The notes beneath the pieces were generated by a model. The model did not search any database and had not been told where the DNA came from. It saw nothing but the letters and a program-made list of their open reading frames with translations. Of a stretch of 64,000 bases of DNA, positions 3,001 through 63,321 are shown piece by piece (position 1 is the stretch's first letter; each line of letters begins with the position of its first letter). A program made the translations under genes and the position numbers. Where the stretch lies: the IMG/VR virus record IMGVR_UViG_3300045988_183785, positions 305 to 64,304 of that record; one strand, given 5' to 3'. The stretch is from a virus.

Positions 3001-6000
3001 TTCGAACACGCAGATATGCTTTCAGGCTTTGAAGTGACTATTTCCGAGAATGGGAAAACTTATTTCTATGTGCTTAATGACCGTCCTTATTATGCTTCTG
3101 TTCGAGTGGTAAAACAGGACGCAATGGACAATGTTCAAATTCCTTACAGCGGAGCTGAGTTCCAGATATACGACCCCGATGGAACTCTTGTGTCCCTCAA
3201 GGCTGGTACTCAAAAAATTGATACATTTAGGACGGATAATGACGGCAATTTGATAACCCCCGAAGAACTTCCCTTTGGTCGCGGCTATAAGCTGGTGGAA
3301 ACCAAAGCTCCTCGTGGCTATCGCTTGAATTCAACACCCGTTACATTCAACGTTGACTTTGAAAGCACAACCATGGAAGACGGGAACAAGGTTGTCGTTG
3401 TGAAGATGACAGACGCGCCTGTAACGCCTCAAATCAAGACTGTAGCTAAGGGCGCAGCAGGGGAGAAAACATTGGAACCCCTGACGTCTGTGACAATTAA
3501 GGATACGGTGTCCTGTACCGATGTCATTCCCGGCAAAACCTATACGGTGAATGGTTATCTGGTTTTGAAGTCTACTGGCGAACCTCTTTTGGATGGCGCC
3601 GGTCGAAAAATAACCGCTACGAACACATTTGTTGGCAGTAACGACTTTAAGGGCTCTACCGTGTTGTCCTTTACATTCGATGCTTCTCTTATTGCTGGAG
3701 ATGCTGTAGTTGTATATGATACGCTGCATCGTGACGGCGTAGAGGTGGCAACCCACAAGAACATTTCGGACGCGGACCAGACCGTATCTTTCTTCGCACC
3801 CGAAATTAAAACTTCTGCCGTCAACCCTGATGGAAATGTGAAGGTTGTTGACCCCTCCATCGGCGTATCTATCGTGGATACGGTGTCCTATAAGCACCTC
3901 ACTCCCGGACATAAATACATTCTGAATGGGCAGATGATGGATAGGGACACGCAGCAGCCGGCAAAGGACGATAACGGAACATACATTGTCGGAACAACAA
4001 CCTTTACTCCGGCGACAACGGAAGGTTCGGTAGATGTGACCTTCACCTTCGATGCAACTGAGATTGCGGGTGTGCAGCTTGTCGCGTTCGAGAAACTCTA
4101 TCATGTTGCCATCAGCAGCGATATCCCCGTTGCAACGCACGAGGACATTGAGGATGCGGAACAGACCGTAACAGTCGAGGCGCCTGAGATTACCACTCAT
4201 GCAACCAACGCCGAAGACGGAACTAAATTCCTTGACCCGCAGTACATGGTGAAGGTCAGGGACTCTGTTGCGTATGAAAAGGTTGTTGAGGGGCACACTT
4301 ATCTGTTGACCGGAAAGGTGTTTGATAAAACGACAGGCGAGTTTGTGAAGGATGCTTCCGGAAATGAAATTACCGGCACAACAAGATTTACGCCCACGGC
4401 GAAGGCCGGTACTGTGGATGTCGAGTTCGTTTTTGATGCTTCGGAACTGTATGGACATATGCTGGTCGTGTTTGAAAAACTGTCTTACAGGGGTGTTGTC
4501 TTAACCGTCCACGAAGATGAAGCAGATGCCGAGCAAACTGTGAATGTCTACAGCCCGAAGATTGGCACTACCGCTATTGATGGTGAGGGTACGGGTAAGT
4601 TTATTGACCCTGCGAAAAATGCTGTCATTAAGGATACGATTGCTTACGAACATCTTACCATAGGGCAGGAGTACACTATCATCGGTACAGTGATGAATAA
4701 GCGAACAGGTGAGGCTGTTGTTTCTGGCGGACGCACTGTAACGGTGACGAACACATTTACGCCGTCTGCGTCTAAGGGCAGCACCGAAATGGTCTTTACA
4801 TTTGATGCTTCTGGTCTTGATGGAGATTCCCTTGTTGTGTACGAAGAGTTGTATTTCCGTGCATCTGACAGCACACCTTGTGCCATCCATAAGGATATCG
4901 GCGATGAAGGGCAGACAGTTGTCGTGAACACTCCTGCAATTCACACGACCATCAATGAGAGCATCTCTCTGAATAACTATTTCGAGCCGCTGAACGAAAT
5001 TACCATTACGGATACTGTGACCTATACAGACCTCGTGCCCGGTCACAGGTACAAGGTGAAGGGCAACCTCGTTTCCAAAGACACCGGCGATGTTATCCGC
5101 GACGGTAATGGAAATTTGGTGTCCGGTGAGGCTGACTTCGTTCCGACGACCAAGGATGGAAATATTGATGTTAAATTCACGCTAAACGCCTCTATCCTGT
5201 ACGGTCAGAGTGTCATTGCTTTCGAGTCTCTGTATTACCACAACACAGTTATTGCCGAGCACAAAGACCTCGCTGACGAGAAACAGGAAGCTGTGTTCTT
5301 CGCTCCTGCGCTGAGTACAAAGGCTCTGAATAATGACGGCAATACAAACTTGATTGACCCTGCCAAGGGAACGCATATTGTGGACACTGTTTATTATCGC
5401 CACTTAACCCCTGACCATGAATATACCGTTGTAGGTAAGCTGATGGATAAAATGACAGGGCTTCCTTTGCTGGATGCGAAGGGTGACGAGATTACCGGCA
5501 AAACCGTATTCACGCCGCAGCGGGTCGCGGGGGCGGTCAACGTCGAGTTTACATTTGACGCCAGCAATATGGCAGGGAAGACGCTCGTTGTTTTTGAGTA
5601 TCTGTACTTCAACGAGGGCGATGAAACTCCCGCAGGGACGCATACGGACATTTCCGACCTGAAACAGAGCCTGACCTTCAACACACCAGCTATTAAGACC
5701 AGTGCGAAGAATGCGGAAGATAACTCCAAGTTCTTTGACCCTAAGAGTGCTGTAAGACTGGTAGATACCGTGAGTTATGAGGGTCTGTGCAAGGGACATG
5801 AGTACACGGTAAATGGTGTCCTGATGGATAAAAAGACCGGTACGCCGGTTCTGAATACGGATGGCAACCCCGTTACCGGAACAACATCATTTACAGCTCG
5901 CAGCGCTGCCGGCAAGGTTAAGGTGGAGTTTGTTTTTGACGCTTCGCAGCTCTACGGAAAATCTCTGGTTGTGTTTGAGGAACTCGTGTTTAACGGAACG

Positions 6001-9000
6001 GTAATTGCGGAGCATAGGGACCTTGACGACAGAAGTCAGACCGTAACAATAAATGTTCCCAGCATCTCGACAAGGGCTGTGAATACGGATGGCAAGGGTA
6101 AGATGCTTGATGCGGCGAAGGAAACCTCTATTACAGACACCGTTTCCTATTCCCATGTAACCCCCGGTCACGAGTACACCTTAGTGGGGCGATTGATGAA
6201 TGGAGGAACTGGTGAGGAAATTCCCGGCACTGCAACACGGGTGAAATTCACTCCGAAGCGTACGTCTGGTGATGTGGACATGACTTTCGCATTGGATGCA
6301 TCTCTCCTTGCTGGTAAAAATGTAGTTGTGTTTGAGGAGCTGTTCTTTAACGAAACGGACGCTGCTCCTTGTGCGACACACAAAGACCTTCGTGACGAAG
6401 CTCAGACCGTTACGGTAATGGAGCCGAGCATCGGAACTACCATGAAGGCAAGTCCTGATAAGAACCAGTTCTTTGTTTCCTCTCTGTCTACGGTTTTGGT
6501 AGATACCGTTACTTATCATAACCTCATTCCCGGTCACACCTATGTCGCCGAGGGGCGTTTGATGGACAAAGCTACTGGACGTGTTCTTGTTGGCGGAAAT
6601 GGCGAGATTTCAGGGAGAACAGTGTTCGTTCCCAAGTCCATGGACGGGTCTGTGGATGTCTATTTTACATTCGACTCTTCTGAGCTGTTCGGCAAAACGG
6701 TCGTGGCCTTTGAAACCGTTTCCTACGGCGGTCACATTATTGCCAAGCATGAGGACATTAACGATGTTGACCAGTCGGCAACATTCTATAATCCTGAACT
6801 GACCAATACGACCGCCGTGAACGGTGAGGGCGGCAGCAAGTACATTGATGCAGCCAGAAATGTGGTTATTAAGGATACTGTAAAGTATGCACATCTGCCG
6901 ATAAAACACGATTTCAAGTTGCGTGGAACACTTGTTTTCCAGTCCTCCGGAGAACCCGTTTTGCTATACAATAAACCTATTGTAGTTGAAAAATCCTTCA
7001 CAGCGAAGAAAGCGGAAGGCTCTATCGACATGGAATTCGTCTTCGATGCATCTGGGCTGCAGGGAAAGAAAATTGTTGTTTTCGAGGAGTTGTTTTACGA
7101 AAATCAAACGATTGCTGCGGCAGCACATAAGGACCTTGGAGATGTCGGCCAGACTGTTACTGTTTCCAATCCTAAGGTGAAGACTGTTGCCTCCAATAAG
7201 GTCGATGGAAGTAAGATGCTTGAGCCGGATAAGAGAGTTACAATCCTCGATACAGTTTCTTTCTCTGGACTGATTGAGGGTCACACCTATAAGGTTTCCG
7301 GGACGCTGATGGATAAGGCAACTGGCAATCCTGTGGTCGATGAAAGTGGCGAGACGATTACCGCTGAAAAGACCTTTAAGGCGAAGGCTGCTGGCGGAAG
7401 TGTTGATGTTGAGTTTACCTTTGCGGCCACAGAGTTGTACGGGAAAGACATTGTTGTTTTCGAGAAGATTTTCTGTAATGACACTGAGATTGCTTCTCAC
7501 GAAAATATCAACGACAGGGAACAGACGGTGACGGTTTATGCGCCTAACATCACTGGTACAACGGCGGTTGGAACTCTTGGGGGCGGTAAGCTGATTGACC
7601 CCGCAGCCAATGTGAAAATCACCGACACTGTTACGTATGAGCATCTGTCTGCTGGCCACAAATACACCTTGCGCGGTACGTTAATGAACAAGGAAACGGG
7701 TGAAGCTATCAAAAATGGTGGCACAGAAGTTGTAGTTGAGCAGACTTTTACGCCTGTGGAAGCAAGCGGTTCTGTGGATATGCAGTTTGTTTTCACTGCT
7801 TCCTTCTTGAAGGGCAAAGACATTGTTGTGTTTGAGGAAATCTATTTCAACTCCGAAGATACTGAACCGGTCGCCGTCCATAGGGATATCGACGATGGAA
7901 AACAGACCGTTTCTGTAACAAGCCCTGAAGTAAGGACTGTTGCCGTGAACAAAGAAGATAATGGCAAGGTCTTTGAACCGGACCAGACGGTTACGCTGAA
8001 GGATACCGTGTTTTACAACAATCTCATTGTGGGACATAGATACACCGTGACCGGAACTCTGATGGATAAGGGAACCGGCAAGCCCATCAAGGATACTGCG
8101 GGAAGCATCGTGGCTTCTTCTGTGGAGTTTACTCCTGATGCTCCCTGCGGCACGGTGGATGTTGAATTCCCCTTCGCTGCAACTGAGTTGTATGGCAAAA
8201 CCATCGTGGCGTTCGAGAAGCTACTCTTCAACGGAACTGTCATTGCGTCCCATGAGGATATCAATGATGAGGAGCAGACTACTACGGTTCACAACCCTGA
8301 AATCGTACGGACTGTTGCTTTGAGCGCAGTGGATGGAGGAAAGTTCATTGATGCCTCTGAAACTTCTACCATCAATGATACTGTGGTATATCGTCACCTG
8401 TCTACTGGACACGCCTACACACTGAGAAGCAGCTTGGTTGATAAAACTACTGGCGAGCCTGTTCTGAATAACGGCAAACCCGTCGTTTCGGAGATGCAGT
8501 TCACGCCTGAAAGCACTGCTGGCTCGGCTGTTGCGGCTATCGCTTTCGACGCTTCTGCCGCGAAGGGACGCGATATCGTGGTGTTCGAGGAACTGTTCTT
8601 TACTGCTGGTGACGAGGCACCTGTGGCGGCGCACAAGGATATTGAGGATGCTGACCAGACTGTGACCGTGGTAAAATCTTCCATCAAGACCTGCGCTGAA
8701 AATGCTGCTGACGGCACGAAGGTGTTTGAGCCCGCCAGCGAGGTTATCCTGAAGGATACTGTGGACTACGAAGGCATCATTGCTGGACATACGTACAAGG
8801 TCGTTGGCACCCTGATGGATAAGTCCACGGGCAAACCGGTGGAGGCCGCAGCAGGGAAGTCTATCACCGCTGAAAAAGTGTTCACGCCTGAGGGCGAGAA
8901 CGGTTCTGTGGTAGTCGAGTTCAAATTCGATGCACGCGATTTCTTTGGGCGCACTCTGGTCGTTTTTGAGGACTTGTACTACGGAGAGACTGTCGTCGCC

Positions 9001-10341
9001 GCTCACCGTGATATCAACGACGAAAACCAGTCTGTCGAGATTAAGAATCCCGTCATTGTTGAAACCATCGCAACAAACAAAGTCGATGGGGGAAAGCTGG
9101 TTGACCCCACAGAGAAGGTCGTTTTGACTGATTCTGTAAAATACGACCATCTCTCCACTGCTCACAAGTATACACTTGTTGGTAAGCTGATGGATAAATC
9201 TACTGGAGAATCCTTGAAGGATAAGGACGGCAACTCTGTTGTTGCATCCACATTCTTTACTCCTGACAACCTCTTCGGTTCTGTTGAAGTCTTGTTTGAG
9301 TTCGATGGGAGTTCGCTCGCTGGCAAGGATATTGTTGTATTTGAGTATCTCTATTACAACGAGGGAGATGAAACGGCTTTGGCAACTCACGAGGACTTGG
9401 AAGACACCGCACAGACCGTTTCCTTTGCGAATCCTGCTATCAAGACCTCTGCTGCCAATGCTTCTACGGGGAAGAAGACGTTCTCTCCGTATGAGAAAGC
9501 CGAGCTGGTAGACACTGTGACCTATGAGGGACTTATCCCCGGTCACGAGTACACCTTGGTCGGGACTCTGGTAGAAAAGGTTAAATCTGGTGGGAATTGG
9601 GTCGAAGGTAAACCCGTCATGGACAAGGACAAAAAGCCCTTGACCGCTACTGCGACCTTTACGCCTGAAAAGGCCGAAGGAACAACGACGGTTTCTTTTG
9701 TGTTTGGTGCTCGTTCCGTTGCGGGGAAAACTCTCGTTGTGTACGAGGAGCTCCTCTACAACAACATGAGTGTCACTACTCACGCTGACATAACGGACGA
9801 GAACCAAACGGTTACAGTTGACCGCATCCATTATAGCGGGCCTACTATGGGAACTACGGCGACATTTGCCAATGGCTCAAAGTCCAGCGGTTACGCCTCT
9901 CGCCTTGTGGTCGTAGATACCGTGAGTTATTCTGGGTTGGCTGTTGGTCAGAATTACACCTTGGTTGGCAGGTTGATGGATGCTCAGACGGGGGAGGCTC
10001 TGCGCGATGCGGGCGGCAGGGAAGTAACCTCCAAGCTGACATTTACCCCGAAGGCCTCCGATGGCTCCATCGACATGAAATTCTCCTTCGCTGCGTCGAA
10101 CATCAAGGGTGCGAAGATTGTCGTGTTTGAGGAGGTGTATGTCGGAGGAAGTGTGGACGGGACTCCGTACCTGAGCCATACTGACATCAATGATGCTGGA
10201 CAGACTGTGACTGTTACCGCGTCTCCCAAGACTGGAGACGATGGCGTCGGCAAATATGTCTCTTTGGGCTCGATTGCCTTGGGAACTGCAATTATTGTCG
10301 TTGTAGTGAGCAACGTCAAGAGAAGAAAGAAAAATAAGTAA
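7..10341 (+). CDS. Giant cell-wall-anchored surface adhesin, 5'-truncated by the window edge. It has Cna-B-like repeats followed by about 18 Thr-Gln ester-bond-type stalk repeats and a C-terminal SPKTG sorting signal.
   Basis: Single 3444-aa ORF with no stop until 10341. There are about 13 repeats of ~95 aa with the motif KTSEDGxV...FxLxGT...TDANGxATFxNV (Cna B / prealbumin-like). These are followed by about 18 repeats of ~120 aa, each with a conserved VVFEELY...HxDxxDxxQTV motif. That motif is the His/Asp/Gln signature of autocatalytic Thr-Gln ester-bond domains (Cpe0147-type). The C-terminus reads SPKTGDDG, then a hydrophobic stretch, then a KRRKKNK tail, which is a sortase sorting signal. 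The N-terminal 95 aa align to aa ~345-440 of the downstream paralog, so the signal peptide and thioester domain lie upstream of the window. Confidence 0.85.
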   Translation: MREFGRIKFSLSGISTSKSGNNLTITATPEAAKSMLNGIESLPCKGNVIDPDSVNAYLLVAGGSKQNCVALNGWPDPVTCYVRAKVTQTTGNLNITKTSENGKNISNVSFTVTGPNGYNRLFKTNASGKISITDLQPGTYTITETSPLGYYAVNRVQTATVTIGGTASVSFQNKVSRCTVQVTKTSEDGVLQGFTFTLKGTSYAGDTVNLSATTDANGKATFSNVPLGSNYVLTEANTPGRYVAPVSQTFTLSTPNTSVSKTFENKLARGNVTVTKTSEDGKVSGVQFNLKGTSLSGQTVNLTETTNASGVATFSNVLVGTYTLTEVNTGRQYAPVSAQNVTVQYNSTARATVSNKLARGSVQVTKSSEDGKVANVKFRLQGTSIDGTAVDLYAATNASGVATFSNVLIGSYTVSEVNVPAYYQAVNPVNVTVTINRKVSVSVQNRLKVGAVQVTKTSEDGVVSNLSFTLTGTSDAGTTVSMTAKTDAQGVANFSNVPIGTRYTVQESSTPTRYVVPGVQAGITVRVNDTTKLSFHNDLARGSLRVTKTSEDGFVSGVKFHLEGTSTSGAAVSLDATTNAVGIAEFKNVLVGNSYVLTEVDTAARYVVPAVQNGITITVGKTTEASVYNKLARGTVTVTKTAEDGLVSGIKFRLTGTAGNGDTVDMTATTNAKGVATFSDVLIGENYFVQEVGTAEKYIVPDVVSGINVTLNKTTNANVHNKLARGTVSVTKTSEDGIVEGIKFHLTGASAQGQRVDMMAVTNASGIATFDNVLVGYNYALEEVDTAARYVIPAVKGGINVKLDKTTTVSVHNVLKKWSVTVTKRDIETTTAQGNATLQGAVYGLYNGDELVKQYTTDVNGKFTTDIYICGDSWTIREIVPSVGYLLDDSVYQVGAEAKNYVIEINAAPDLGVTEKVIKGYIKIFKHSDVGPTGVEESLPTGKVTPEVGAEFDVYLKAAGSYAAAKTTDRDHIVVDEDGYATTKALPYGTYVIEQTKHFEHADMLSGFEVTISENGKTYFYVLNDRPYYASVRVVKQDAMDNVQIPYSGAEFQIYDPDGTLVSLKAGTQKIDTFRTDNDGNLITPEELPFGRGYKLVETKAPRGYRLNSTPVTFNVDFESTTMEDGNKVVVVKMTDAPVTPQIKTVAKGAAGEKTLEPLTSVTIKDTVSCTDVIPGKTYTVNGYLVLKSTGEPLLDGAGRKITATNTFVGSNDFKGSTVLSFTFDASLIAGDAVVVYDTLHRDGVEVATHKNISDADQTVSFFAPEIKTSAVNPDGNVKVVDPSIGVSIVDTVSYKHLTPGHKYILNGQMMDRDTQQPAKDDNGTYIVGTTTFTPATTEGSVDVTFTFDATEIAGVQLVAFEKLYHVAISSDIPVATHEDIEDAEQTVTVEAPEITTHATNAEDGTKFLDPQYMVKVRDSVAYEKVVEGHTYLLTGKVFDKTTGEFVKDASGNEITGTTRFTPTAKAGTVDVEFVFDASELYGHMLVVFEKLSYRGVVLTVHEDEADAEQTVNVYSPKIGTTAIDGEGTGKFIDPAKNAVIKDTIAYEHLTIGQEYTIIGTVMNKRTGEAVVSGGRTVTVTNTFTPSASKGSTEMVFTFDASGLDGDSLVVYEELYFRASDSTPCAIHKDIGDEGQTVVVNTPAIHTTINESISLNNYFEPLNEITITDTVTYTDLVPGHRYKVKGNLVSKDTGDVIRDGNGNLVSGEADFVPTTKDGNIDVKFTLNASILYGQSVIAFESLYYHNTVIAEHKDLADEKQEAVFFAPALSTKALNNDGNTNLIDPAKGTHIVDTVYYRHLTPDHEYTVVGKLMDKMTGLPLLDAKGDEITGKTVFTPQRVAGAVNVEFTFDASNMAGKTLVVFEYLYFNEGDETPAGTHTDISDLKQSLTFNTPAIKTSAKNAEDNSKFFDPKSAVRLVDTVSYEGLCKGHEYTVNGVLMDKKTGTPVLNTDGNPVTGTTSFTARSAAGKVKVEFVFDASQLYGKSLVVFEELVFNGTVIAEHRDLDDRSQTVTINVPSISTRAVNTDGKGKMLDAAKETSITDTVSYSHVTPGHEYTLVGRLMNGGTGEEIPGTATRVKFTPKRTSGDVDMTFALDASLLAGKNVVVFEELFFNETDAAPCATHKDLRDEAQTVTVMEPSIGTTMKASPDKNQFFVSSLSTVLVDTVTYHNLIPGHTYVAEGRLMDKATGRVLVGGNGEISGRTVFVPKSMDGSVDVYFTFDSSELFGKTVVAFETVSYGGHIIAKHEDINDVDQSATFYNPELTNTTAVNGEGGSKYIDAARNVVIKDTVKYAHLPIKHDFKLRGTLVFQSSGEPVLLYNKPIVVEKSFTAKKAEGSIDMEFVFDASGLQGKKIVVFEELFYENQTIAAAAHKDLGDVGQTVTVSNPKVKTVASNKVDGSKMLEPDKRVTILDTVSFSGLIEGHTYKVSGTLMDKATGNPVVDESGETITAEKTFKAKAAGGSVDVEFTFAATELYGKDIVVFEKIFCNDTEIASHENINDREQTVTVYAPNITGTTAVGTLGGGKLIDPAANVKITDTVTYEHLSAGHKYTLRGTLMNKETGEAIKNGGTEVVVEQTFTPVEASGSVDMQFVFTASFLKGKDIVVFEEIYFNSEDTEPVAVHRDIDDGKQTVSVTSPEVRTVAVNKEDNGKVFEPDQTVTLKDTVFYNNLIVGHRYTVTGTLMDKGTGKPIKDTAGSIVASSVEFTPDAPCGTVDVEFPFAATELYGKTIVAFEKLLFNGTVIASHEDINDEEQTTTVHNPEIVRTVALSAVDGGKFIDASETSTINDTVVYRHLSTGHAYTLRSSLVDKTTGEPVLNNGKPVVSEMQFTPESTAGSAVAAIAFDASAAKGRDIVVFEELFFTAGDEAPVAAHKDIEDADQTVTVVKSSIKTCAENAADGTKVFEPASEVILKDTVDYEGIIAGHTYKVVGTLMDKSTGKPVEAAAGKSITAEKVFTPEGENGSVVVEFKFDARDFFGRTLVVFEDLYYGETVVAAHRDINDENQSVEIKNPVIVETIATNKVDGGKLVDPTEKVVLTDSVKYDHLSTAHKYTLVGKLMDKSTGESLKDKDGNSVVASTFFTPDNLFGSVEVLFEFDGSSLAGKDIVVFEYLYYNEGDETALATHEDLEDTAQTVSFANPAIKTSAANASTGKKTFSPYEKAELVDTVTYEGLIPGHEYTLVGTLVEKVKSGGNWVEGKPVMDKDKKPLTATATFTPEKAEGTTTVSFVFGARSVAGKTLVVYEELLYNNMSVTTHADITDENQTVTVDRIHYSGPTMGTTATFANGSKSSGYASRLVVVDTVSYSGLAVGQNYTLVGRLMDAQTGEALRDAGGREVTSKLTFTPKASDGSIDMKFSFAASNIKGAKIVVFEEVYVGGSVDGTPYLSHTDINDAGQTVTVTASPKTGDDGVGKYVSLGSIALGTAIIVVVVSNVKRRKKNK

Positions 10342-10396: not shown

Positions 10397-10531
10397 GAAA
10401 AAATTATTTGATTGAAAACAGAAGGAAGGAAAGCGTGCAAACCCGTTGCAACATAAGGGGTTTCCGTCTTTGCGAGGCGCAAGACTTTGTGGTTTAAGAT
10501 GAGAAAACGAAAAATTTCCCAAAAACCACAC

Positions 10532-10560
10532 TTGACATTTTTTTATAATTGTGCTATTGT
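10532..10560 (+). promoter_or_regulatory. Sigma-A-type promoter (TTGACA-N17-TATTGT). It belongs to a conserved promoter family that occurs 4 times in the window.
   Basis: TTGACATTTTTTTATAATTGTGCTATTGT. The spacer is nearly identical to those of the promoters at 21982, 30403 and 60674. Confidence 0.5.
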
Positions 10561-10669
10561 AAGCACGTCAAAAATAATGTCAAGTTTTCCACAGCTTAAA
10601 CCTCGTCACGGTCTATTATTTAATTACATTCCCTGAGCAAATTTTGAAATGAATGAAAGGACAAGAACT

Positions 10670-11940: not shown

Positions 11941-12222
11941 CTTTATACATAAGAGGAGAAGATTAAGATGGAAGCGAAATAAGTAAGAGATGAACCCAAA
12001 AAGTCAAAAGGGTGTCAGCAGGGGTTGATACCCTTTTCTTTTCTTCTTGAAATTTGTAGGTGCGGATGTGTTGACAATATGCGCGATTATGCTACCATAA
12101 AAACATGGAGGGCAATCCGCCTCCTTATATCATTCGTTTCAAATTGGCAATATTAAGAAATGAATAAATATAAGAGGGCTGATTTTCTCTAAATAATTCT
12201 TCATTGAAAGGAGACAAATACC

Positions 12223-21475: not shown

Positions 21476-21981
21476 TTCCCGTGACCTCCTTCTACGCTGC
21501 TACTTTTTCCTTTCTTCCTTTGAAAACGATGACAGTGGCGTGTTTTGTTCGCCATTCGAGATATTGCTCCCGCGTATTGGGCTGGCAAGAGTACATGGAA
21601 ATAGCGCTGACAAGCCGCTGCTTCTATGCCGCAAAAGTGGAGTAAGTGCTTCCTGCGGCAGTGAAAGTCGTCTGCCAGCGCTTATGTTCCATATTCAATA
21701 TCACTCTACCACGATTACATAATTTTGTCAAGTTTACGACTTGTGAAAATTGGAACAATCATGTCTTTCGTGTTGACATTATTCCTAATATAAACTGTGT
21801 TAATTTGTGGGATGTTACAGTTTCGTGTAACATCTTTTAATCATTTGTTAAAGGATTCTGCTCGTTTTTGTGCTAAATGTAGATATTCTTACCAAATATT
21901 ACGTTTTTAGACGTTTTGCTTTTCTCCCTTACGACTTAAATGATTTTGGCACATGAGCCACCCTTTTTACGCCCCGCGTAC

Positions 21982-22010
21982 TTGACATTATTTTATGTTC
22001 GTGCTAATAT
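21982..22010 (+). promoter_or_regulatory. Sigma-A-type promoter with extended -10 (TTGACA-N17-TGcTAATAT)
   Basis: CTTGACATTATTTTATGTTCGTGCTAATAT. It is a member of the conserved 4-copy promoter family. Confidence 0.5.
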
Positions 22011-22032
22011 GAAATCGAAGAAATAAGCCCTT

Positions 22033-30275: not shown

Positions 30276-30402
30276 AAAATACCTCCGTTGGCAGGTTCCC
30301 GCCACAGCCACATTCTCTAAAGACCGTGGCGGGACTTGCTTTTCTACATTTTCTATATTACCATATTCGAACATAATGTCAAGCGAAAAGCACCATGTAG
30401 AC

Positions 30403-30431
30403 TTGACATTATTTTATATTCGTGTTATAGT
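30403..30431 (+). promoter_or_regulatory. Sigma-A-type promoter with extended -10 (TTGACA-N17-TGtTATAGT)
   Basis: ACTTGACATTATTTTATATTCGTGTTATAGT. It is a member of the conserved 4-copy promoter family. Confidence 0.5.
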
Positions 30432-30473
30432 CGAATTACGATAGAAACATAAAAGACTCGAAAGGAAAGCGTT

Positions 30474-31292: not shown

Positions 31293-32738
31293 ATGTTTGA
31301 CCTGCTCTTTGGGAACAAGGCCGTTCTCGTCCCCGCAATTATCGTGATTGCGGTCCTCATCATCTGTATTTTGGGGTATATCAAGGCGCCGCCCGATATG
31401 GCGTATATCATCTCCGGTCTTCGCAAGAAGCCCAAAATCCTCATTGGTCGTGCCGGCGTTCGCGTTCCGTTTCTGGAGCGCGTCGATAAGCTAATTGTCC
31501 GTCAGATTTCCGTGGACATCAAATCCGATGGCTACATTCCCACACTGGACTTTATCGGTGTTGACGTGGATGCTGTCGCCAAGGTCCGTGTTCGGACGGA
31601 TGATGAGGGCATTAAGCTGGCTATGCGGAACTTCCTGAACATCACCGATGCCCGTGGCTTCGAGCAGGCGATTTCGGACTCTCTTCAAGGAAACATGAGA
31701 GAGATTATCGGTACTATAACGCTCAAGGAAATCTGCAATGACCGCAAGAAATTCGGTGATGAAATCCAGTCCAAGGCTCAAGTGGATATGAATGCGTTGG
31801 GTATCGAGATTATCTCCTGCAACATCCAGCGTGTGACCGACGAGAAGGGTCTTATCAATGCTCTGGGTCAGGACAATATGAGTCAAATCCAGAAAAATGC
31901 TTCTATCGCCAAAGCCGAAGCGGAGCGCGATATTCAGATTGCTCAGGCGGAGGCGGCGCGTCAGGCGAACGAGGCTCAGGTCGCGTCCGATACGCAGATT
32001 TCTATTCGTAAGACCGAACTGGCCGTGAAGCAGGCCGAGCTGAAGGAGACCTCCGACATCAAGAAGGCTGCTGCCGATGCTGCCTATAAGATTGAGGAAC
32101 AGAAGCAGCGCCGGAGCCTCGATATTGCATCTACCGATGCCGACATTGCGAAGCGCGAGAAGGAAGCAGAGCTGGCCGAGCGCGAAATCACGCTGCAGGA
32201 GCGTCGGCTGGATGCCGATATCCGCAAGAAGGCGGATGCCGATAAGTACGCCGCTGAGAAGAAGGCTGAAGCAGAGCTGTACGCCCGTAAGCAGGAAGCC
32301 GAGGCAAAGCGCTTCGAGCAGGAGCAGATTGCCGAAGGTATCAAGGCCGTCGGTGCCGCAGAAGCCGAGGCTATCAAGGCCAAGGCTCTGGCCGAAGCGG
32401 AAGGTATCGACCGTAAGGCTGAGGCCATGAAGAAGTATGGTGAGGCCGCAGTGGTCGAGATGATTATGAACGCGCTGCCCGAAATCGCCAAGAACGTGGC
32501 TGCACCTCTCACTAATGTGGATTCTATTACCATGTACGGCGAGGGCAACAGCACCAAGCTGATTGAGGACATCGTTTCTTCGACTACTCAGGTCTCCAAC
32601 GGTATGCTGAACGGTCTGGGTATCGACCTGCGGAGCCTGCTGGCTGGCTTTGTCGGCGGTAAGGTCGCAGTTCCCGCATCTGCTTCCAGTGTTGAGCCTG
32701 TTGGACCCGTTGCTGCTACTGAGGGCAACGCCGAGTAA
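31293..32738 (+). CDS. Flotillin-like SPFH/band-7 domain protein (FloT/YuaG-like)
   Basis: N-terminal TM, SPFH domain, then a long A/E/K-rich coiled-coil with EA repeats ([24 protein letters not shown]), which is the classic flotillin architecture. Confidence 0.8.
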
Positions 32739-32780
32739 AAACAATATCCCGCCGTAGGCGCTCCCTGCGGCGGGGAATAC

Positions 32781-32868
32781 GGAGAGATGGCCGAGCGGTT
32801 GAAGACACCGGTCTTGAAAACCGGCGATGCGAAAGCATCCGTGGGTTCGAATCCCACTCTCTCCGCCA
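32781..32868 (+). tRNA. tRNA-Ser (anticodon TGA)
   Basis: Cloverleaf with acceptor GGAGAGA/TCTCTCC, anticodon loop CTTGAAA, long variable arm, T-loop GGTTCGAATCC and 3' CCA. Length 88 nt. Confidence 0.9.
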
Positions 32869-32882
32869 AAAGTAAAAAATAA

Positions 32883-33400
32883 GTACGGACGGTATAACCG
32901 GAATTAACGCCTGTGGAGATGCATGGTCATCGTGGAAGCAGGAATACTCTGTTAGCTGGTCATTCATGTGAGAGATGATGTCAGCACTTTTAGGGAACTG
33001 AATATGCCTGTGTCGGGTGTATGAAACCCTGAAAAAGCAGTGGTGTATACCATCAACGCAGTCCCATTAGAGTGCCGGAGAGGTATATAAAGCCCCGAAA
33101 TAGCAGGGTTGTATACCATGTTGACTACGGGAATCACAGTATACAGGGCCTTAAAACAATAGGGTTATATACCACTCACGCATTCCTGTTGCTTGTGAGC
33201 ACAAGATGCCAAATTTTGAAAAAGTGTGCAATGATTGCATACTTAAAAAGTACGGATGGTATAACCGGAATTAACGCCTGTGGAGACGGACTCCGTCGCT
33301 AAAGCAGGAACTTGCCATGAGCTGAATTCTGCGTGAGAGGCGGTGCAACGCCGAGGTGGGAGTACCTTGGGGGAACATTAGCAAGCGCACAAAAATCAAA
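32883..33400 (+). mobile_element. IS200/IS605-family right-end / omega-RNA-scaffold-like remnants (two diverged copies plus a 3-unit mini-repeat), directly 3' of tRNA-Ser. No tnpA or tnpB is present.
   Basis: 32883-32972 is about 92% identical to 63059-63150, the sequence downstream of the tnpB-like gene. A second diverged copy at about 33215-33400 includes the palindrome GTGTGCAATGATTGCATAC found right after the tnpB-like stop (63018-63036). Three short repeats resembling CCCyGAAAwAGCAGGGTTGTATACCA lie at about 32990, 33040 and 33140. Confidence 0.55.
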
Positions 33401-33437
33401 AATCGGTGGAATGGCATGGAAGGCAGGTGACTTGTAA

Positions 33438-33836
33438 ATGGCAGACTATTTCAAAGTTGTTTACTCGCGGGAGCTTTCCGCTGAATATAACCCTCGCTAC
33501 ATCGTGATACAGCCGAATACCGGCGCGGTTTTAGATGATGCCCAAGGTTTCGGCTACACGAGCCGCGAGAAGGCGGCAAAGGCATACACCTACAAGAAGA
33601 TGCCGCATCCCGAACAGCGGTCTCTGGCGGCCCGCAAACGCCGCGTAGAGAAGTGGTGTCTGGAGCACCTTGATGTGGTAGATGGTTATGCTGACATCTG
33701 CTTGCAGCATATGAAGGCATCGGGAGATGGACGTATCAGTATGAGTTCTGCTGTTGTCTCCCGTTATTTGAAGGACTGCGGATACGATAATCTGCCGTTC
33801 TCGGCACAGGACTTTATCCGCTACTGTAAAACTTAA
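33438..33836 (+). CDS. Hypothetical protein (132 aa)
   Basis: ORF with ATG start. No recognisable domain. Confidence 0.4.
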   Translation: MADYFKVVYSRELSAEYNPRYIVIQPNTGAVLDDAQGFGYTSREKAAKAYTYKKMPHPEQRSLAARKRRVEKWCLEHLDVVDGYADICLQHMKASGDGRISMSSAVVSRYLKDCGYDNLPFSAQDFIRYCKT

Positions 33837-42939: not shown

Positions 42940-42999
42940 GATGTTTTCTCCTTTCTCCCAGCCTGTGATAAGGACTTACGGGAAACCAAAATAAAATGT

Positions 43000-43200
43000 A
43001 TATATAGAAAAAGACAATCACTGCCCGAAAAGGGAAGTGATTGTCTGAATTTATGATGTGACTTGAAAAACGGAGATAAAACTCCTTATAAAAATATCTT
43101 CGTAATTATACTATTATACTACCACGTTTCGCTATTTTGTCAACAGCAGCAACGTAAAAAAAGAAGCTCCCGAAGGAGCTTCTTTTGAAATTTAGTTTTT
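43000..43200 (-). promoter_or_regulatory. Repeat module R1: terminator of the upstream operon, then promoter (TTGACA-N19-TATAAT-AG-TATAAT), conserved leader and a terminator-like attenuator hairpin
   Basis: Sequence shared with 48935-49125, 52925-53112 and 55965-56160. Read on the minus strand it is TTGACAaaatagcgaaacgtggtagTATAATagTATAATtacgaagatatttttataAGGAGttttatCTCC...AGACAATCACT-loop-AGTGATTGTCT-TTTTTCTATATA. Confidence 0.6.
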
Positions 43201-48907: not shown

Positions 48908-48934
48908 GCGTTTACTCCTTTCGTTTTTACTTGT

Positions 48935-49125
48935 TCTGAATATATAAAAAGACAGTCGTTCCCAAATGAGAACAACTGTCTTGAATATGATGATGTGACT
49001 GAAAACGGAGATAAATCTCCTTATAAAAATATCTTCGTAATTATACTACTATACTACCACAATTCTTTATAATGTCAACGGAAACGGTACAAAAAAAGAA
49101 GCCCCCGAAAGAGCTTCTTTTTAAG
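48935..49125 (-). promoter_or_regulatory. Repeat module R2 (terminator, promoter, leader and attenuator hairpin)
   Basis: Read on the minus strand: TTGACAttataaagaattgtggtagTATAGTagTATAATtacgaagatatttttataAGGAGAtttATCTCCgttttcagtcacatcatcatattcAAGACAGTTGTTC-loop-GAACGACTGTCTTTTTATATAT. Confidence 0.6.
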
Positions 49126-52871: not shown

Positions 52872-52924
52872 ATTTTTCTCCTTTCTCCCAGCCTGTGTTA
52901 AGGTCTTATGGGAACAAAAATGTA

Positions 52925-53112
52925 GTGAATATATAAAAAGACAGTCGTTCTCAAAAGAGAACAACTGTCTTGAATGTGATGATGTGACTGAAAACGGAGA
53001 CAAAGCTCCTTATAAAAATATCTTCGTAATTATACTACTATACTACCACATTTCCTTATAATGTCAACGGTTTCGACGCAAAAGAAAAGAGCCGCACAGC
53101 GGCTCTTTTTTT
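52925..53112 (-). promoter_or_regulatory. Repeat module R3 (terminator, promoter, leader and attenuator hairpin)
   Basis: Same architecture as R2. The leader hairpin is AAGACAGTTGTTCTC-tttt-GAGAACGACTGTCTT followed by TTTTATATAT. Confidence 0.6.
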
Positions 53113-55929: not shown

Positions 55930-55964
55930 TATGTTTTCTCCTTTCTTATTGTGTTGTAATGTAA

Positions 55965-56160
55965 AAAAATATATAAAAAGACAGCTATCCCTGTCTTGGG
56001 ATAACTGTCTTGAATACTTGGTGTGACTGGAAGCGGAGATAAGTCTCCTTATAAAAATATCTTCGTAATTATACTATTATACTACCACAATTATTTATAA
56101 TGTCAACAATGGCAGAGAAAAAAGAGGCGGCTTTCGCCTGCCTCTTTTTTTACCTTATTT
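55965..56160 (-). promoter_or_regulatory. Repeat module R4 (terminator, promoter, leader and attenuator hairpin)
   Basis: Read on the minus strand: TTGACAttataaataattgtggtagTATAATagTATAATtacgaagatatttttataAGGAGActtATCTCC...AAGACAGTTATCCC-aagaca-GGGATAGCTGTCTT followed by a T run. Confidence 0.6.
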
Positions 56161-60359: not shown

Positions 60360-60673
60360 ATATGTTCTCACCTCCGTATGGTGGGAAAATGTCAGGGTGT
60401 CGGGGTGCTTTTCGTGAACTACTCGGCAATAAATCACCGAGGATTCTTGCTTACTTCTTATAAAGAGGGCTTACACACCCTTATTATAAACACGAACATA
60501 AAATTTTGTCAAGTGTGTTAGAGAGAAAATTTACTGGATGTCAACCTTTATTCTTTTGCATATTCGTTATTATTGCCAACTATTTTTTCGTAAAATACAG
60601 CTTGCTTTAGTTTGTGCAGCACGCTTTACGGCGTATAAACTCGCGGTATAGCTTTTTTTACTGATAATTAGAC

Positions 60674-60702
60674 TTGACATTTTTATATGTTCGTGTTAGT
60701 AT
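60674..60702 (+). promoter_or_regulatory. Sigma-A-type promoter with extended -10 (TTGACA-N17-TGtTAGTAT)
   Basis: GACTTGACATTTTTATATGTTCGTGTTAGTAT. It is a member of the conserved 4-copy promoter family. Confidence 0.5.
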
Positions 60703-60709
60703 AACAGCG

Positions 60710-61198
60710 TGGACAGGGCAAGAAAGGCTCGTTCGAAGGGCTCGTGCCTAAAATGACAATATTCTTGCGATTGTAAGAATAAGCGCCTAAATTGCCCGTC
60801 CCGTTTTCTTCTTTCTTTAATTACACTCATAAGCACAATAAAGTCAGCTCCCTGAGGGAAGTGTGCGGGAGCTGCTTCGACTTTCGCGTTGTTCTCCATG
60901 CGGGGAGGTTCTGGCGGTTCGAGTCCGCACGACGCGCCTTCTGTTTTCGCTGCTGTTATCTTTGCCTCTGTCTTTTCCAACGAGCAGCGGACACGGAAAC
61001 ATCTCTCAATATGATAGCGTAGCATAACTGGTAATGCCGTACCTCTCTCACAGGTAACGATATGTTGGTTCAACTCCAGCCGCTATTGCCAGCCGGCGTT
61101 CTACCCACCCCGCCGACATCAACTCTCTTCGGCGCTGGCGGCCTCCGTGCAGACGTGATTAACCTGCGATAAGCGGAGGCTGCCAGCACCACCAAAAT
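60710..61198 (+). ncRNA. Candidate structured non-coding transcript or leader upstream of the tRNA cluster (no convincing ORF; contains tRNA-like T-loop motifs)
   Basis: About 490 nt lie between a strong promoter and tRNA-Thr with only short, low-quality ORFs. GGTTCGAGTCC (60918) and GGTTCAACTCC (61067) are T-loop-like. A tRNA-like acceptor pairing CGCGTTG/CGACGCG flanks the first. Confidence 0.25.
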
Positions 61199-61274
61199 GC
61201 TGGTGTAGCTCAGTAGGCAGAGCGGCGCACTCGTAACGCGCAGGTCGTGGGTTCGACCCCCACCGTCAGCTCCA
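61199..61274 (+). tRNA. tRNA-Thr (anticodon CGT)
   Basis: Acceptor GCTGGTG/CGTCAGC (two G-U pairs), anticodon loop CTCGTAA, T-loop GGTTCGACCCC, 3' TCCA. Length 76 nt. Confidence 0.8.
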
Positions 61275-61367
61275 TTCCATACTCATTCTCCTTCAAGTGA
61301 AGCCCCCGTGTAACAGGTCTTTTGAAAAGTGCTTTCAGCCTCGTTGTGCGGGGGCTTCACAACTTAT

Positions 61368-61443
61368 GCTGATGTAGCTCAGTTGGCAGAGCGGCGGATT
61401 TGTAAACCGCAGGTCGGGGGTTCAAGGCCCTCCATCAGCTCCA
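61368..61443 (+). tRNA. tRNA-Thr (anticodon TGT)
   Basis: Acceptor GCTGATG/CATCAGC, anticodon loop TTTGTAA, T-loop GGTTCAAGGCC, 3' TCCA. Length 76 nt. Confidence 0.8.
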
Positions 61444-61478
61444 TTAAAACCATGTGCTTTTGTGGTGTTTTTATATGC

Positions 61479-61555
61479 GCGGATGTCGTCTAATTTGGTG
61501 AGACACCAGCCTTCCAAGCTGGTCATTGCGGGTTCGAGTCCCGTCGTCCGCTCCA
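61479..61555 (+). tRNA. tRNA-Gly (anticodon TCC)
   Basis: Acceptor GCGGATG/CGTCCGC, anticodon stem-loop CCAGC-CTTCCAA-GCTGG, T-loop GGTTCGAGTCC, 3' TCCA. Length 77 nt. Confidence 0.8.
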
Positions 61556-61943
61556 AGGACACCGTAAAGTGTGTCCTTTTTCTTTATCTGCTTGTTTGTC
61601 CTGTGTTTTTCGGACAACATCGGCGAGCGCAAAAGTCGCCTGAAGCGTGAGAAGCGAGCTGCCTGCACCTGTTTTGCGGGCGGTGGCGTGATAAGGGTGA
61701 AACTCTGCGCTTTCAGTAGCCGAAAGCAGATGAGCAAAAGTCTCCGCGAACGCCTGCATGGTTCGCGGGACAAGGGAAGCCGGAAAAATAAGTAAACGCG
61801 GGCCGAGCGCAGAGGTTGTTGGCGTATTCCAGACGTGGGTGCTGCCTTTTATGCTGTGCTTGTTTGCGTGGGGTCCGGTGTTCTCGCAGTCTGGATGGTT
61901 GCTGCGAGAGGTGCCAAAACTTATTGCGAAAGGACGGAGTTCT

Positions 61944-63002
61944 ATGCCAACTACATTTCAAGCGTTTAAGTATCGCATTTACCCGACTGATGAGCAGGTC
62001 GAAATCATTGAAAAGACTTTCAAGTGCTGCCGGTTTGTGTGGAACCATTTCCTTGAGCGAACCTCCAAAATCTATGACCGTCGGCAGGAAAAGATGACGA
62101 CCTTCGACTGTATGAAGGTTCTCACGGAGATGCGGGAGCGCTGGCCTTGGCTTGCGGACTGCGGCTGTACGGCAGAGAGATATGCCATCATTGATTTGTT
62201 TGAGGCGCGAAAGGCGTTCTTCCGCCGCATTAAAGCGGGGGAGAAGCCCGGTTATCCCAAATTTAAGGGCGCGTCCCATCCGACACAGAGTTTTACGACC
62301 GCTGGTACTATCTATGTGACGGACGATTACATTCAGGTTCCGTTTGGAGGACAGTATCAGAAAATCAACAAGCTCAGGCGAGGGACGGGGCGCCCCATCG
62401 AAGGGTCTCCCCGCGAGGTCACTATTTCTCGGTCTGCTACCGGAAAATACTGGGCATCTGTCTGCTGTAAAGTAGAGCGAGACACGCTGCCTATTGTGGA
62501 CGGCGAGGTGGGAATCAGTCTCGGCCTGAAGGAGTTGGCTATTGACAGCAACGGCGTTCACTATGAGAACCCGAAGCATCTGAGCAAGTCTGCAAAGCGG
62601 TTGGCACGTGAGCAGCGGCGTCTATCCCGCAAGAAGAAGGGCTCTGTCAACTACGAGAAGCAGCGGCGCAAGGTAGCCGGCGTCCATGAGCATATTGCCA
62701 ATCAGCGCAATGACTACCGGCATAAAATCAGCCGTGAACTTGTCAACGCGAACCAGCTTATTGCTGTTGAGAAGGTGGCCGTTAAGCCCTTAGTTGAGGG
62801 CAATGAGCAGGCTAAAAGCATCCTCGATGCCGGCTGGTCTGAACTTACCGGTATGATAAAGTATAAGGCGGACTGGGCTGGACGCACTCTGGTGGACGTA
62901 GATACCGCCACCGTAGCACCGGAAGCCAAGCATGATGAGGCACTGGCACAGGTCGTGCTGTCCGAAGGTCAGCGCATGGCTTCCGAGCAGAAGCCTGCCT
63001 AA
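61944..63002 (+). CDS. tnpB: TnpB homolog (IS200/IS605 OrfB family) with a substituted RuvC-I Asp and a C-terminal truncation that removes the zinc finger and RuvC-III. It is either a TldR-like nuclease-dead RNA-guided protein or a decaying tnpB.
   Basis: The N-terminus MPTTFQAFKYRIYPTDEQ is typical of TnpB. The RuvC-I motif reads VGISLGLKELAIDSNG where GIDLG is expected, so the catalytic D is replaced by S. The RuvC-II Glu is retained in LIAVEKVAV. The protein ends at ...EYKADWAGRTLVDVD plus a short tail. Canonical TnpB continues from here with a CxxC...CxxC zinc finger and the RuvC-III Asp. No alternative frame restores these. Length 352 aa against about 400 for active TnpB. Confidence 0.7.
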   Translation: MPTTFQAFKYRIYPTDEQVEIIEKTFKCCRFVWNHFLERTSKIYDRRQEKMTTFDCMKVLTEMRERWPWLADCGCTAERYAIIDLFEARKAFFRRIKAGEKPGYPKFKGASHPTQSFTTAGTIYVTDDYIQVPFGGQYQKINKLRRGTGRPIEGSPREVTISRSATGKYWASVCCKVERDTLPIVDGEVGISLGLKELAIDSNGVHYENPKHLSKSAKRLAREQRRLSRKKKGSVNYEKQRRKVAGVHEHIANQRNDYRHKISRELVNANQLIAVEKVAVKPLVEGNEQAKSILDAGWSELTGMIKYKADWAGRTLVDVDTATVAPEAKHDEALAQVVLSEGQRMASEQKPA

Positions 63003-63222
63003 AGCCGAGCGAGGAAAGTGTGCAATGATTGCACACATTGCCAAGGAAATAAAAACGAGTACGGACGGTATAGCCGGAATTAACGCCTGTGGAGATGCAT
63101 GGTCGTCGTGGAAGCAGGAATACTCTGTTGGCTGGTAGTCACGTGAGAGGTGGCACCAGCGCTTTGGGGAACTGAATACCTGTGCTGGGTATACACCACC
63201 CGGAAATAACAGGGTTTTACCA
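63003..63222 (+). ncRNA. Omega-RNA (reRNA)-like scaffold downstream of the tnpB-like gene, at the IS605-type right end
   Basis: A perfect palindrome GTGTGCAATGATTGCACAC follows the stop. A ~90-nt block is ~92% identical to 32883-32972. Further hairpins follow (GGCACCAGCGC..., CCCGGAAATAACAGGG). The structure shows compensatory changes relative to the copy at 33215-33400. Confidence 0.5.
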
Positions 63223-63321
63223 TTCGTAATTATAGTTCTTCCCTCCGCTGTGTGGAGCGTTTTGTCGAAATGACAAAACATTCCTCTTAAATTCTTAAAA
63301 ACAAGAAAGGAAATAAAGAAT

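Follow-up and report, generated by a model that had tools for sequence, protein, structure and literature searches.

A scaffold-headed mini-array downstream of tRNA-Ser in a human-gut mobile element: a probable guide-RNA locus of a nuclease-dead TnpB-like protein

Sequences resembling the guide-RNA scaffold of a tnpB-like gene lie directly behind a tRNA-Ser gene about 30 kb away from that gene, and the question raised by this arrangement is whether they are working guide RNAs or leftovers of a transposon. An earlier note on the 64,000-nt stretch of DNA analysed here (the window) proposed that they could represent stand-alone guide RNAs used in trans by a TldR-like protein, or alternatively what is left after repeated insertions at a tRNA hotspot have decayed, or else subterminal palindromes of IS605. 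TldRs are TnpB-like, nuclease-dead repressors; the known ones act with a single adjacent guide RNA, whose 9-16-nt guide is fixed and directed at a conserved promoter of the host (Wiegand et al. 2023/2024, Xiao et al. 2026). A second line is that of the transposon-CRISPR intermediates termed TranC, of which clades 3, 9, and 11 are compared here (Jin et al., Cell 2025).

Architecture and ancestry of the tRNA-linked locus

The placement of the scaffold copies given in the earlier note, i.e., starting 15 nt past the CCA end of tRNA-Ser, was borne out by a 37-nt scaffold core that occurs at three window sites (32883, 33250, and 63059) with 0-2 mismatches, where none is expected in shuffled sequences; the third site belongs to the copy next to the tnpB-like gene (copy T). 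The tRNA, the first copy (copy A), and the units that follow it were parsed as listed here.

32781-32868, + strand: tRNA-Ser(TGA) (ARAGORN; Rfam tRNA, 54 bits)
32883-33015, + strand: scaffold A, multi-stem body of an omega-RNA-type guide scaffold (core matches, alignment to copy T, consensus fold)
33016-33051, + strand: repeat 1, terminal compound hairpin of scaffold A (nhmmer E=2.7e-7)
33052-33081, + strand: spacer S1, 30 nt, ATCAACGCAGTCCCATTAGAGTGCCGGAGA (array parsing)
33082-33117, + strand: repeat 2, near consensus (nhmmer E=4.3e-10)
33118-33138, + strand: spacer S2, shortened, 21 nt (array parsing; G/A at 33129 among relatives)
33139-33173, + strand: repeat 3, degenerate terminal repeat, GTATACAGGGCCTTAAAACAATAGGGTTATATACC (nhmmer E=8.4e-7)
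33174-33205, + strand: array tail S3 (array parsing; variable among relatives)

Copy A (32883-33051) is a complete omega-RNA-type scaffold of 170 nt. Its identity to copy T, previously put at ~92% over ~90 nt, was measured as 94% over 86 nt, and the alignment runs for ~170 nt, to the scaffold end. A repeat profile built from relatives identified, by nhmmer, exactly four units in the window (E 1e-6 to 4e-10), the three listed above and one at 63188-63219; since one of these occupies 33016-33051, copy A ends in repeat 1. The three short repeats described before are thus real as units, but the unit measures 36 nt, with the ~26-nt motif making up only its 3' two-thirds, and the units do not all lie between the first and second copies, as the first of them forms the 3' terminus of scaffold A. 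The sequences behind the repeats do differ from one another, as claimed, but instead of ~20 nt each they comprise 30 nt, 21 nt, and a tail, such that constant spacer length is seen in the window array in part only. S1 is the sole full-length guide of this array and stands in cis with a full scaffold; S3 may be a last guide or a mere trailer. In repeat 1, the window carries a G-to-T change in the inner stem (CAGTGG), and positions 33040/33041 are variable among relatives. The window array is a small, old member of its family, with one intact spacer and two decayed units.

The 15-nt junction between tRNA-Ser and scaffold is also found in 8 distinct arrays of relatives. The tRNA-Ser gene, which is 92% identical to the tRNA-Ser of an Oscillospiraceae species, may be both a source of transcription and a 5' processing site for scaffold A. 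Phage and plasmid records matched the locus through the tRNA only, and Rfam contained no family for the scaffold, either across the full window at the gathering threshold or in 32700-33500 at E<=1.

The consensus fold of 24 scaffolds consists of a closed multi-stem body with three inner stems and then a separate 3' repeat hairpin; in scaffold A, a 5' GUACGG pairs with CCUGUGC close to the 3' end. In the 36-nt repeat (consensus GGTATACACCACCCGGAAATAACAGGGTTGTATACC; pattern GGTRTAY..CCCnGAAAnnnCAGGGkTGTATACC), the 5' strand GGTRTAY pairs with the TGTATACC end to give a compound hairpin around CCCnG-AAAnnn-CAGGG. Across 70 distinct repeats, this pairing was kept in 94% of cells, compared to 17-53% when the partner was slid; covariation was not found in these 70 repeats, where changes were one-sided, wobble-compatible, and equal to shuffles. 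Single-sequence folding was uninformative: copy A together with its array reached z = -1.1, and copy B, at z = -0.29, folded no better than shuffles. Given this layout, the first unit (scaffold, repeat, and S1) would in effect be a natural single-guide RNA, and later units would be hairpin only.

With regard to ancestry, a scan of species-representative genomes with the scaffold core matched archaeal tnpB genes only, and no bacterial genome, because this core codes for a C-terminal motif conserved in TnpB. An invariant 22-nt core is identical in the canonical tnpB of metagenome-assembled Methanosarcinales genomes and encodes, in one frame, the GINACGE-type version of that motif; as it lies there in the 3' coding end of the gene, the scaffold is a relic of a tnpB 3' end together with right-end RNA. 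This relic appears to have been kept as RNA after its coding function was lost, and the 36-nt repeat corresponds to the terminal hairpin of the transposon right-end RNA.

The second copy at the locus (copy B) is preceded by a palindrome and a promoter-like site.

33216-33243, + strand: promoter-like site TTGAAA-16 nt-CATACT, overlapping the palindrome GTGTGCAATGATTGCA (consensus scan)
33249-33400, + strand: copy B, diverged scaffold paralog (alignments)

As the earlier note had recognised, copy B keeps the palindrome GTGTGCAATGATTGCA (33224-33242), which is common to copy B and the region past the effector stop codon; beyond this palindrome and 42 nt of core at 95% identity, copy B diverges. 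It has the same 5' core and forms equivalent stems from different sequence (GACGG-ACU-CCGUC; GC-GUGAGAG-GC), and has no closing helix, no terminal repeat hairpin, and no guide. Among four relatives, copy B showed 1 substitution in ~150 nt. The promoter-like site would start transcription at the first base of copy B, which could be a trans-acting guide-less scaffold RNA, a decoy, or a relic.

The effector gene and the array family in related elements

The tnpB-like gene and the array adjacent to it occupy the following positions.

61944-63002, + strand: effector, 352-aa TnpB-like protein, predicted nuclease-dead (Pfam OrfB_IS605 and HTH, without Zn ribbon)
63018-63036, + strand: palindrome GTGTGCAATGATTGCACAC between effector stop codon and scaffold T (shared by 23 of the 62 distinct arrays)
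63059-63187, + strand: scaffold T, effector-adjacent (core match, alignment, consensus fold)
63188-63221, + strand: single degenerate terminal repeat of the T array, ..CAGGGTTTTACC (repeat profile)
63222-63279, + strand: T tail, then a terminator-like hairpin at 63259-63279 (array parsing)

The effector ORF was called from 61758, and its likeliest start, an ATG at 61944, gives a protein of 352 aa, which is to our knowledge smaller than any known CRISPR effector. Residues 6-322 align with ISDra2 TnpB (8H1J, 8BF8; E=2e-49); LaTranC, the only solved TranC, was matched weakly (E=1e-11 over 80 residues). The RuvC-I motif reads GISLG (D to S); RuvC-II retains its glutamate, and both RuvC-III and the zinc ribbon/finger are missing. 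Three 90%-identity clusters, with 99%, 88%, and 79% identity to the protein in the window, retain this truncated form. Beyond these clusters, the closest relatives share ~50% identity and are ordinary TnpBs of 370 aa that possess zinc ribbons; the nearest active ones among them have single right-end omega-RNAs and no arrays. Between the 99% and the 88% subclade, pN/pS was 0.13-0.14, indicating that the dead effector is kept by selection. Each of 26 contigs (26/26) contains one effector gene. That no transposase gene lies nearby, as reported earlier, held for all 46 ORFs of the window, among which no TnpA, Y1, or serine transposase family was detected; a matching IS605 left end, which the earlier note had named as evidence that would speak against a guide-RNA role, was not found there either.

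Scaffold T, which starts 57 nt past the stop codon of the effector gene, shows homology to the 3' ends of tnpB genes. The T tail, found only at its own locus in an exact-match scan of IMG/VR, is either a fixed terminal guide or a trailer; its nt 2-13 (a 12-nt seed) match four paralogous D5 promoter modules in the window.

Among IMG/VR contigs, the scaffold core occurs 89 times in 58 stretches (contigs of 31-372 kb), with relatives drawn mostly from one metagenome project (3300045988), and it is present in human-gut ENA assemblies as well. Complete upstream sequence was available for 62 distinct arrays, from 26 related IMG/VR contigs and several human-gut metagenome contigs, and in 61 of the 62 the scaffold core stands directly upstream. 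Arrays contain 1-7 repeats of 36 nt, and the modal spacer length is 30 nt (30/58 first spacers and 46/79 later spacers). Contigs typically carry about seven scaffold-plus-array loci versus one effector gene, with arrays positioned after the effector gene, after tRNA-Ser (the 8 distinct arrays mentioned above), after terminator hairpins, and after a DUF1064-like gene. The right end of the window is 96.6% identical to a related locus (L088) in which two additional arrays, one with 3 and one with 7 units and each headed by a scaffold, follow within 2.3 kb; the window very likely cuts off further arrays. Neither Pfam nor PADLOC detected cas1, cas2, or cas4 among the 46 ORFs of the 64-kb window. 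Pfam assigned 17 families in these ORFs, including a topoisomerase, a RecG-like helicase, an SPFH protein, a PemK toxin, and giant repetitive surface proteins, and no phage structural genes were found in the window; relatives are classed as viral contigs of up to ~190 kb. The carrier is a large human-gut mobile element, be it a phage, a plasmid, or a phage-plasmid.

Orthologous arrays have distal spacers in common and differ in their scaffold-proximal spacers. For example, in the effector-adjacent array of the 88% clade, L009 and L002 hold the spacer AATGGCTCG.. alone, L011 has two spacers added in front of it, and L041, L058, and L010 each carry different further spacers in front of the L011 set; L016, L047, and L036 provide a further example of effector-adjacent turnover. 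Similarly, the tRNA-Ser arrays of L003, L007, L019, and L033 have a common trailer preceded by different 30-nt spacers, and at the T locus, where the window has the degenerate terminal repeat only, L008/L022 and L023/L032 each have a different additional repeat-spacer unit ahead of it. At the distal end, repeats are degenerate and spacers are frequently cut to 15-21 nt. This nesting is the pattern of polarised acquisition known from CRISPR arrays.

The comparison across strains that had been suggested as a check gave a divided answer. In five close relatives, scaffold A (0/133 nt) and S1 (0/30 nt, identical in all five) are without substitutions, but the remainder of the array accumulated 6 substitutions in ~160 nt, two of them in the inner stem of repeat 1, with window units 2 and 3 drifting at about the neutral rate; the neighbouring ORF has ~15 substitutions in 400 nt. 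Small as they are, these counts fit a constrained scaffold A and S1 and drifting distal units.

Protospacers and the reading of the locus

Protospacers were found for five spacers from relatives, two of them with 30/30 matches. In a search of phage records, two spacers from different arrays proved to match the same small gene of a human-faecal record, and another record was matched by a third spacer; the small gene encodes an HTH_17 excisionase (xis) and lies beside a tyrosine integrase gene. In five metagenome contigs, a 30/30 match of the L033 spacer covers both the start codon of xis and its ribosome-binding site; the L003 spacer has a 29/30 match farther into xis, and the spacer found in L048 and L035 matches 23/30 in the adjacent integrase gene, with mismatches mostly at third codon positions. 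A fourth spacer matches 30/30 in a large serine recombinase gene. All four intragenic spacers correspond to the sense strand, and a guide could therefore pair with template DNA and not with mRNA. As a separate observation, a guide-less tnpB 3' relic comparable to copy B is located directly upstream of the targeted xis gene. The fifth protospacer lies in the window itself.

12052-12081, - strand: protospacer of the L002 spacer (28/30, first 19 nt exact)

It overlaps the -35 element TTGACA (12071-12076) in the promoter of an ORF for a 1888-aa surface protein. No consistent target-adjacent motif was apparent on either side of the five protospacers (flanks AAGGAGG, AATTGCG, GTGACG, GGCTAC, AATCGCG).

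Targets for the window's own guides, which the earlier note had proposed to look for, were not found in the collections scanned for each of them. Exact-match scans for S1 in IMG/VR and JGI/ENA metagenome contigs returned the arrays themselves only, as did IMG/VR scans for the T tail, the widely shared spacer AAGATGCC.., sp112, and q65; S2 and S3 had no protospacer in PLSDB or related element loci, nor in the window when searched there with 10-14-nt seeds. All 120 spacers were without a match in PLSDB plasmids, and ~125 spacers compared with ~0.9 Mb of related element sequence gave no match beyond the L002 promoter site.

Considering these data, we think it probable, on the strength of the sequence comparisons, that the locus is a guide-RNA expression site of a domesticated, nuclease-dead TnpB system that acquired CRISPR-type arrays. 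The earlier proposal of guide RNAs used in trans by a TldR-like protein agrees with the ratio of one effector to about seven arrays, with the invariant scaffold, and with an effector that is dead and under purifying selection; what it missed are the CRISPR-type arrays. Under this probable reading, the array would be transcribed with tRNA-Ser or just behind it, and the 352-aa dead effector, encoded 30 kb away, would bind scaffold-repeat-guide RNAs in trans; the resulting complex would bind complementary DNA and block transcription without cutting, like TldR and Cas12m. The guide directly behind the scaffold (here S1) would function as a natural single-guide RNA, and downstream guides, having the hairpin only, may either rely on scaffold supplied in trans or constitute retired memory. 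New spacers would be inserted by an integrase encoded outside the window, possibly the host Cas1-Cas2.

A more far-reaching proposal, which we advance tentatively and hold to be clearly less likely than the expression-site reading as such, is that the lineage represents a living transition from omega-RNA to CRISPR. Here, the unsplit scaffold would serve as the array leader, such that each new 30-nt spacer lands directly behind the scaffold and older spacers are pushed into hairpin-only units; spacers would be captured adaptively from competing integrative elements via a borrowed or unknown integrase, and silencing would proceed only via the 352-aa protein, preferentially of the excision and integration recombinases of rivals.

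Three other explanations seem to us unlikely to differing degrees. The arrays might serve, or oppose, a different, host-encoded effector, either as mini-arrays that exploit a host TranC/Cas12-type nuclease with the same repeat or, with the dead effector and scaffolds acting as decoys, by soaking up host guide RNAs. Such an arrangement would suit TranC clade 3, which is ISDra2-like, occurs in Oscillospiraceae, and has 32/36-bp repeats and no cas accessory genes; the resemblance of the tRNA-Ser to an Oscillospiraceae tRNA points the same way, viral mini-arrays that use host Cas proteins are established, and the window has no adaptation genes. The arrays, however, are preceded by a scaffold (61/62) that shares homology with the right-end RNA of the effector gene on the same element, this effector is strongly conserved, its nearest active relatives (~50% identity) have single omega-RNAs and no arrays, and the scaffold core was found in no bacterial species-representative genome; we accordingly give a host effector little credence. 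About equally doubtful is a gene-regulation circuit in which TldR-style fixed guides regulate promoters of the element or its host, as opposed to adaptive targeting of competitors. Rapid spacer turnover is unlike the conserved single guides of known TldRs, and the spacer of a relative that falls on the -35 box of a surface-protein promoter in the element family, which speaks for such a circuit, is the only one of ~125 spacers with a match in ~0.9 Mb of element sequence; a circuit of this type would nevertheless account for the seed match between T tail nt 2-13 and the four paralogous promoter modules in the window, and for the chromosome-like, syntenic context of the xis-int target beside variable giant surface proteins.

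Least probable of all, in our judgement, is non-functional debris, i.e., decaying IS605-family right ends whose copies arose at a tRNA insertion hotspot by slippage or recombination. The invariance of scaffold A and S1 while their flanks change, the different, canonical 30-nt spacers at the same tRNA-linked locus in relatives, the exact spacer matches to foreign genes, and the lack of TnpA and of a left end all argue against decay, even though the scaffold does descend from a tnpB 3' end (with the 22-nt core identical in archaeal tnpB), window units 2 and 3 are degenerate and drifting with a 21-nt spacer, and copy B has no guide end. The decay-remnant and subterminal-palindrome alternatives of the earlier note were hence right about ancestry and about the drift of units 2 and 3, but cannot explain uniform foreign 30-nt spacers.

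If the expression-site reading is confirmed, the family would offer a natural test case for the origin of arrays by reiteration of a guide-proximal hairpin, would let the need for a full scaffold in cis be tested, and would show spacer acquisition without linked cas1-cas2. It would also suggest that silencing in conflicts among human-gut mobile elements is preferentially directed at recombinase genes (xis, int, and serine recombinase), and it would provide a very small programmable, multiplexed repressor.

Relation to known systems

The effector fits the TldR-type definition, being of TnpB size, mutated in the RuvC site, shortened at the C-terminus, located on a mobile element without a link to a transposase, and accompanied by an adjacent guide-RNA scaffold derived from a transposon right end (scaffold T); repression is likewise predicted to be steric. 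By contrast, no arrays have been reported for TldRs, while here about seven dispersed scaffold-plus-array loci with variable 30-nt spacers accompany one effector, and in place of a single conserved guide to a promoter, the protospacers lie mostly inside recombinase genes. TranCs share TnpB-like effectors, some of them ISDra2-like and some from Oscillospiraceae or phages, and short arrays with 32-38-bp repeats that lack cas1/cas2 and are thought to derive from right-end RNA. They differ in being active nucleases with a split tracrRNA and crRNA; the catalytic site is absent here, and each array is fused, at its first repeat, to a full, unsplit scaffold. This scaffold might also act in trans on later repeats, and copy B could be a guide-less scaffold RNA.

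Type V-M (Cas12m) and the type IV-A3 systems of plasmids are similar in that they occur on mobile elements, do not cleave their targets, silence transcription of competitors, and encode no adaptation genes themselves; for spacer acquisition, type IV-A3 borrows host Cas1-Cas2. Their effectors are unrelated or distant (Cas12m, at ~600 aa, has the complete RuvC fold, and type IV uses a multi-subunit complex), and their CRISPR arrays are ordinary ones without a fused scaffold. Sigma-factor-associated dead Cas12f/TnpB omega-RNA arrays (Altae-Tran et al. 2023; Hoffmann et al. 2025) also combine a nuclease-dead TnpB-family protein with reiterated guide-bearing RNA units, but what is duplicated in those systems is whole omega-RNAs or long repeats of >60 bp, and transcription is activated through a sigma factor that the protein recruits, whereas in the present family the reiterated part is the 36-nt terminal hairpin alone, and no sigma factor was found nearby. 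With the right end of ISDra2-type IS200/IS605 elements, the family shares a scaffold core and stems homologous to the tnpB 3' end and right-end RNA, the repeat corresponding to the terminal hairpin; unlike those elements, it lacks TnpA, a left end, and an intact tnpB and shows no sign of mobility, and the sequences between its repeats are foreign.

Measured against CRISPR arrays in general, the family has constant repeats, near-constant spacers, foreign spacer content, and polarised gain, and no cas1/cas2; many V-U, V-M, and TranC systems are likewise without cas1/cas2, and inactivated V-U variants with arrays, which may include the present clade, have already been catalogued. The best reading of the locus would thus be a TldR-like repressor with CRISPR-type arrays that mixes features of TldR, TranC, and type V-M. 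The family would join the line of TldRs, which are dead and use a fixed guide against a host gene, with the TranC/type V line, which is active and uses arrays, in a combination of a dead, TnpB-sized effector and arrays that turn over behind the ancestral guide scaffold as their leader.

Effector gene and its surroundings

Two features precede the gene of the effector, a nuclease-dead TnpB-like protein:
61013-61555, four clustered tRNA genes (Glu, Thr, Thr, Gly), just 5' of the effector gene
61758-61943, in-frame 5' extension of the annotated effector ORF by 62 codons, probably untranslated

At the other end of the gene, the final 39 effector residues (RTLVDVDTATVAPEAKHDEALAQVVLSEGQRMASEQKPA, window 62886-63002) were compared with the orthologous ends of L090-L092, L100, and L104, and were found to be identical or to differ by one residue (in L092) across subclades that show 18% nucleotide divergence across the gene. 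This non-homologous tail may play a separate role in the protein, or its coding sequence may overlap with an RNA element. In the relative L094 (IMGVR_UViG_3300029310_000398), an insertion of ~1.7 kb (7045-8745) separates the last codons of the effector, here cut to 348 aa, from its scaffold; the insertion encodes an IscB-like protein with a RuvC motif (GIDPGRTNIG) and an HNH motif, and a second type of RNA-guided transposon nuclease has thus inserted into the system. L093, L095, and L096 likely carry the same insertion.

T tail and recurrent promoters

The T tail follows the terminal repeat of the effector-adjacent array. Its nucleotides 2-13 (TTCGTAATTATA, window 63223-63234) have exact matches in a set of four paralogous intergenic modules of 191 nt (repeat family D5), each with a minus-strand TTGACA promoter between terminator hairpins:
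42997-43187, module 1, match at 43099
48932-49122, module 2, match at 49034
52921-53111, module 3, match at 53023
55960-56150, module 4, match at 56062

The chance expectation for this match is ~0.1. The T tail could act as a fixed guide that targets the element itself through a short seed; alternatively, the match could be no more than common AT-rich, promoter-like sequence. Copies of a near-consensus promoter family (ACTTGACATTATTTTATrTTCGTGyTAnTAT) recur throughout the element:
10515-10562, plus strand
21965-22012, plus strand
30386-30433, plus strand
60657-60704, plus strand
60485-60514, inverted

Two of these form a divergent pair at ~60.5-60.7 kb. This recurrence suggests a single, common transcription programme.

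Scaffold sequences, surface proteins, and the targeted xis gene

Archaeal tnpB genes from Methanosarcinales/ANME-2 metagenome-assembled genomes (L059-L068) carry an identical copy of the 22-nt scaffold core (CCGGAATTAACGCCTGTGGAGA) in their 3' coding ends; this striking nucleotide identity across domains likely reflects the double role of the core, which contributes to the guide RNA and also encodes a GINACGE-type motif. The first spacer of L023 and L045 (CTTCGTCAATGAkGGCATTTCCACAGGCGT) ends in 15-16 nt that are the reverse complement of the core (window 32907-32922, 63083-63098); it may be self-derived or a recombination scar.

The window also contains two giant ORFs that look like surface adhesins and are composed of many diverged tandem domains (~92 and ~125 aa):
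7-10341, plus strand, 3444 aa
12223-17889, plus strand, 1888 aa; promoter matched by a relative's spacer

Variable-length giant surface-protein genes adjoin the excisionase-integrase (xis-int) pair, whose surroundings are chromosome-like and syntenic. In both L107 (9780-9900) and L070 (2780-2900), a guide-less tnpB 3'-end/omega-RNA relic lies immediately 5' of the xis gene targeted by two spacers; it resembles copy B, the scaffold paralog in the window, which is also guide-less.
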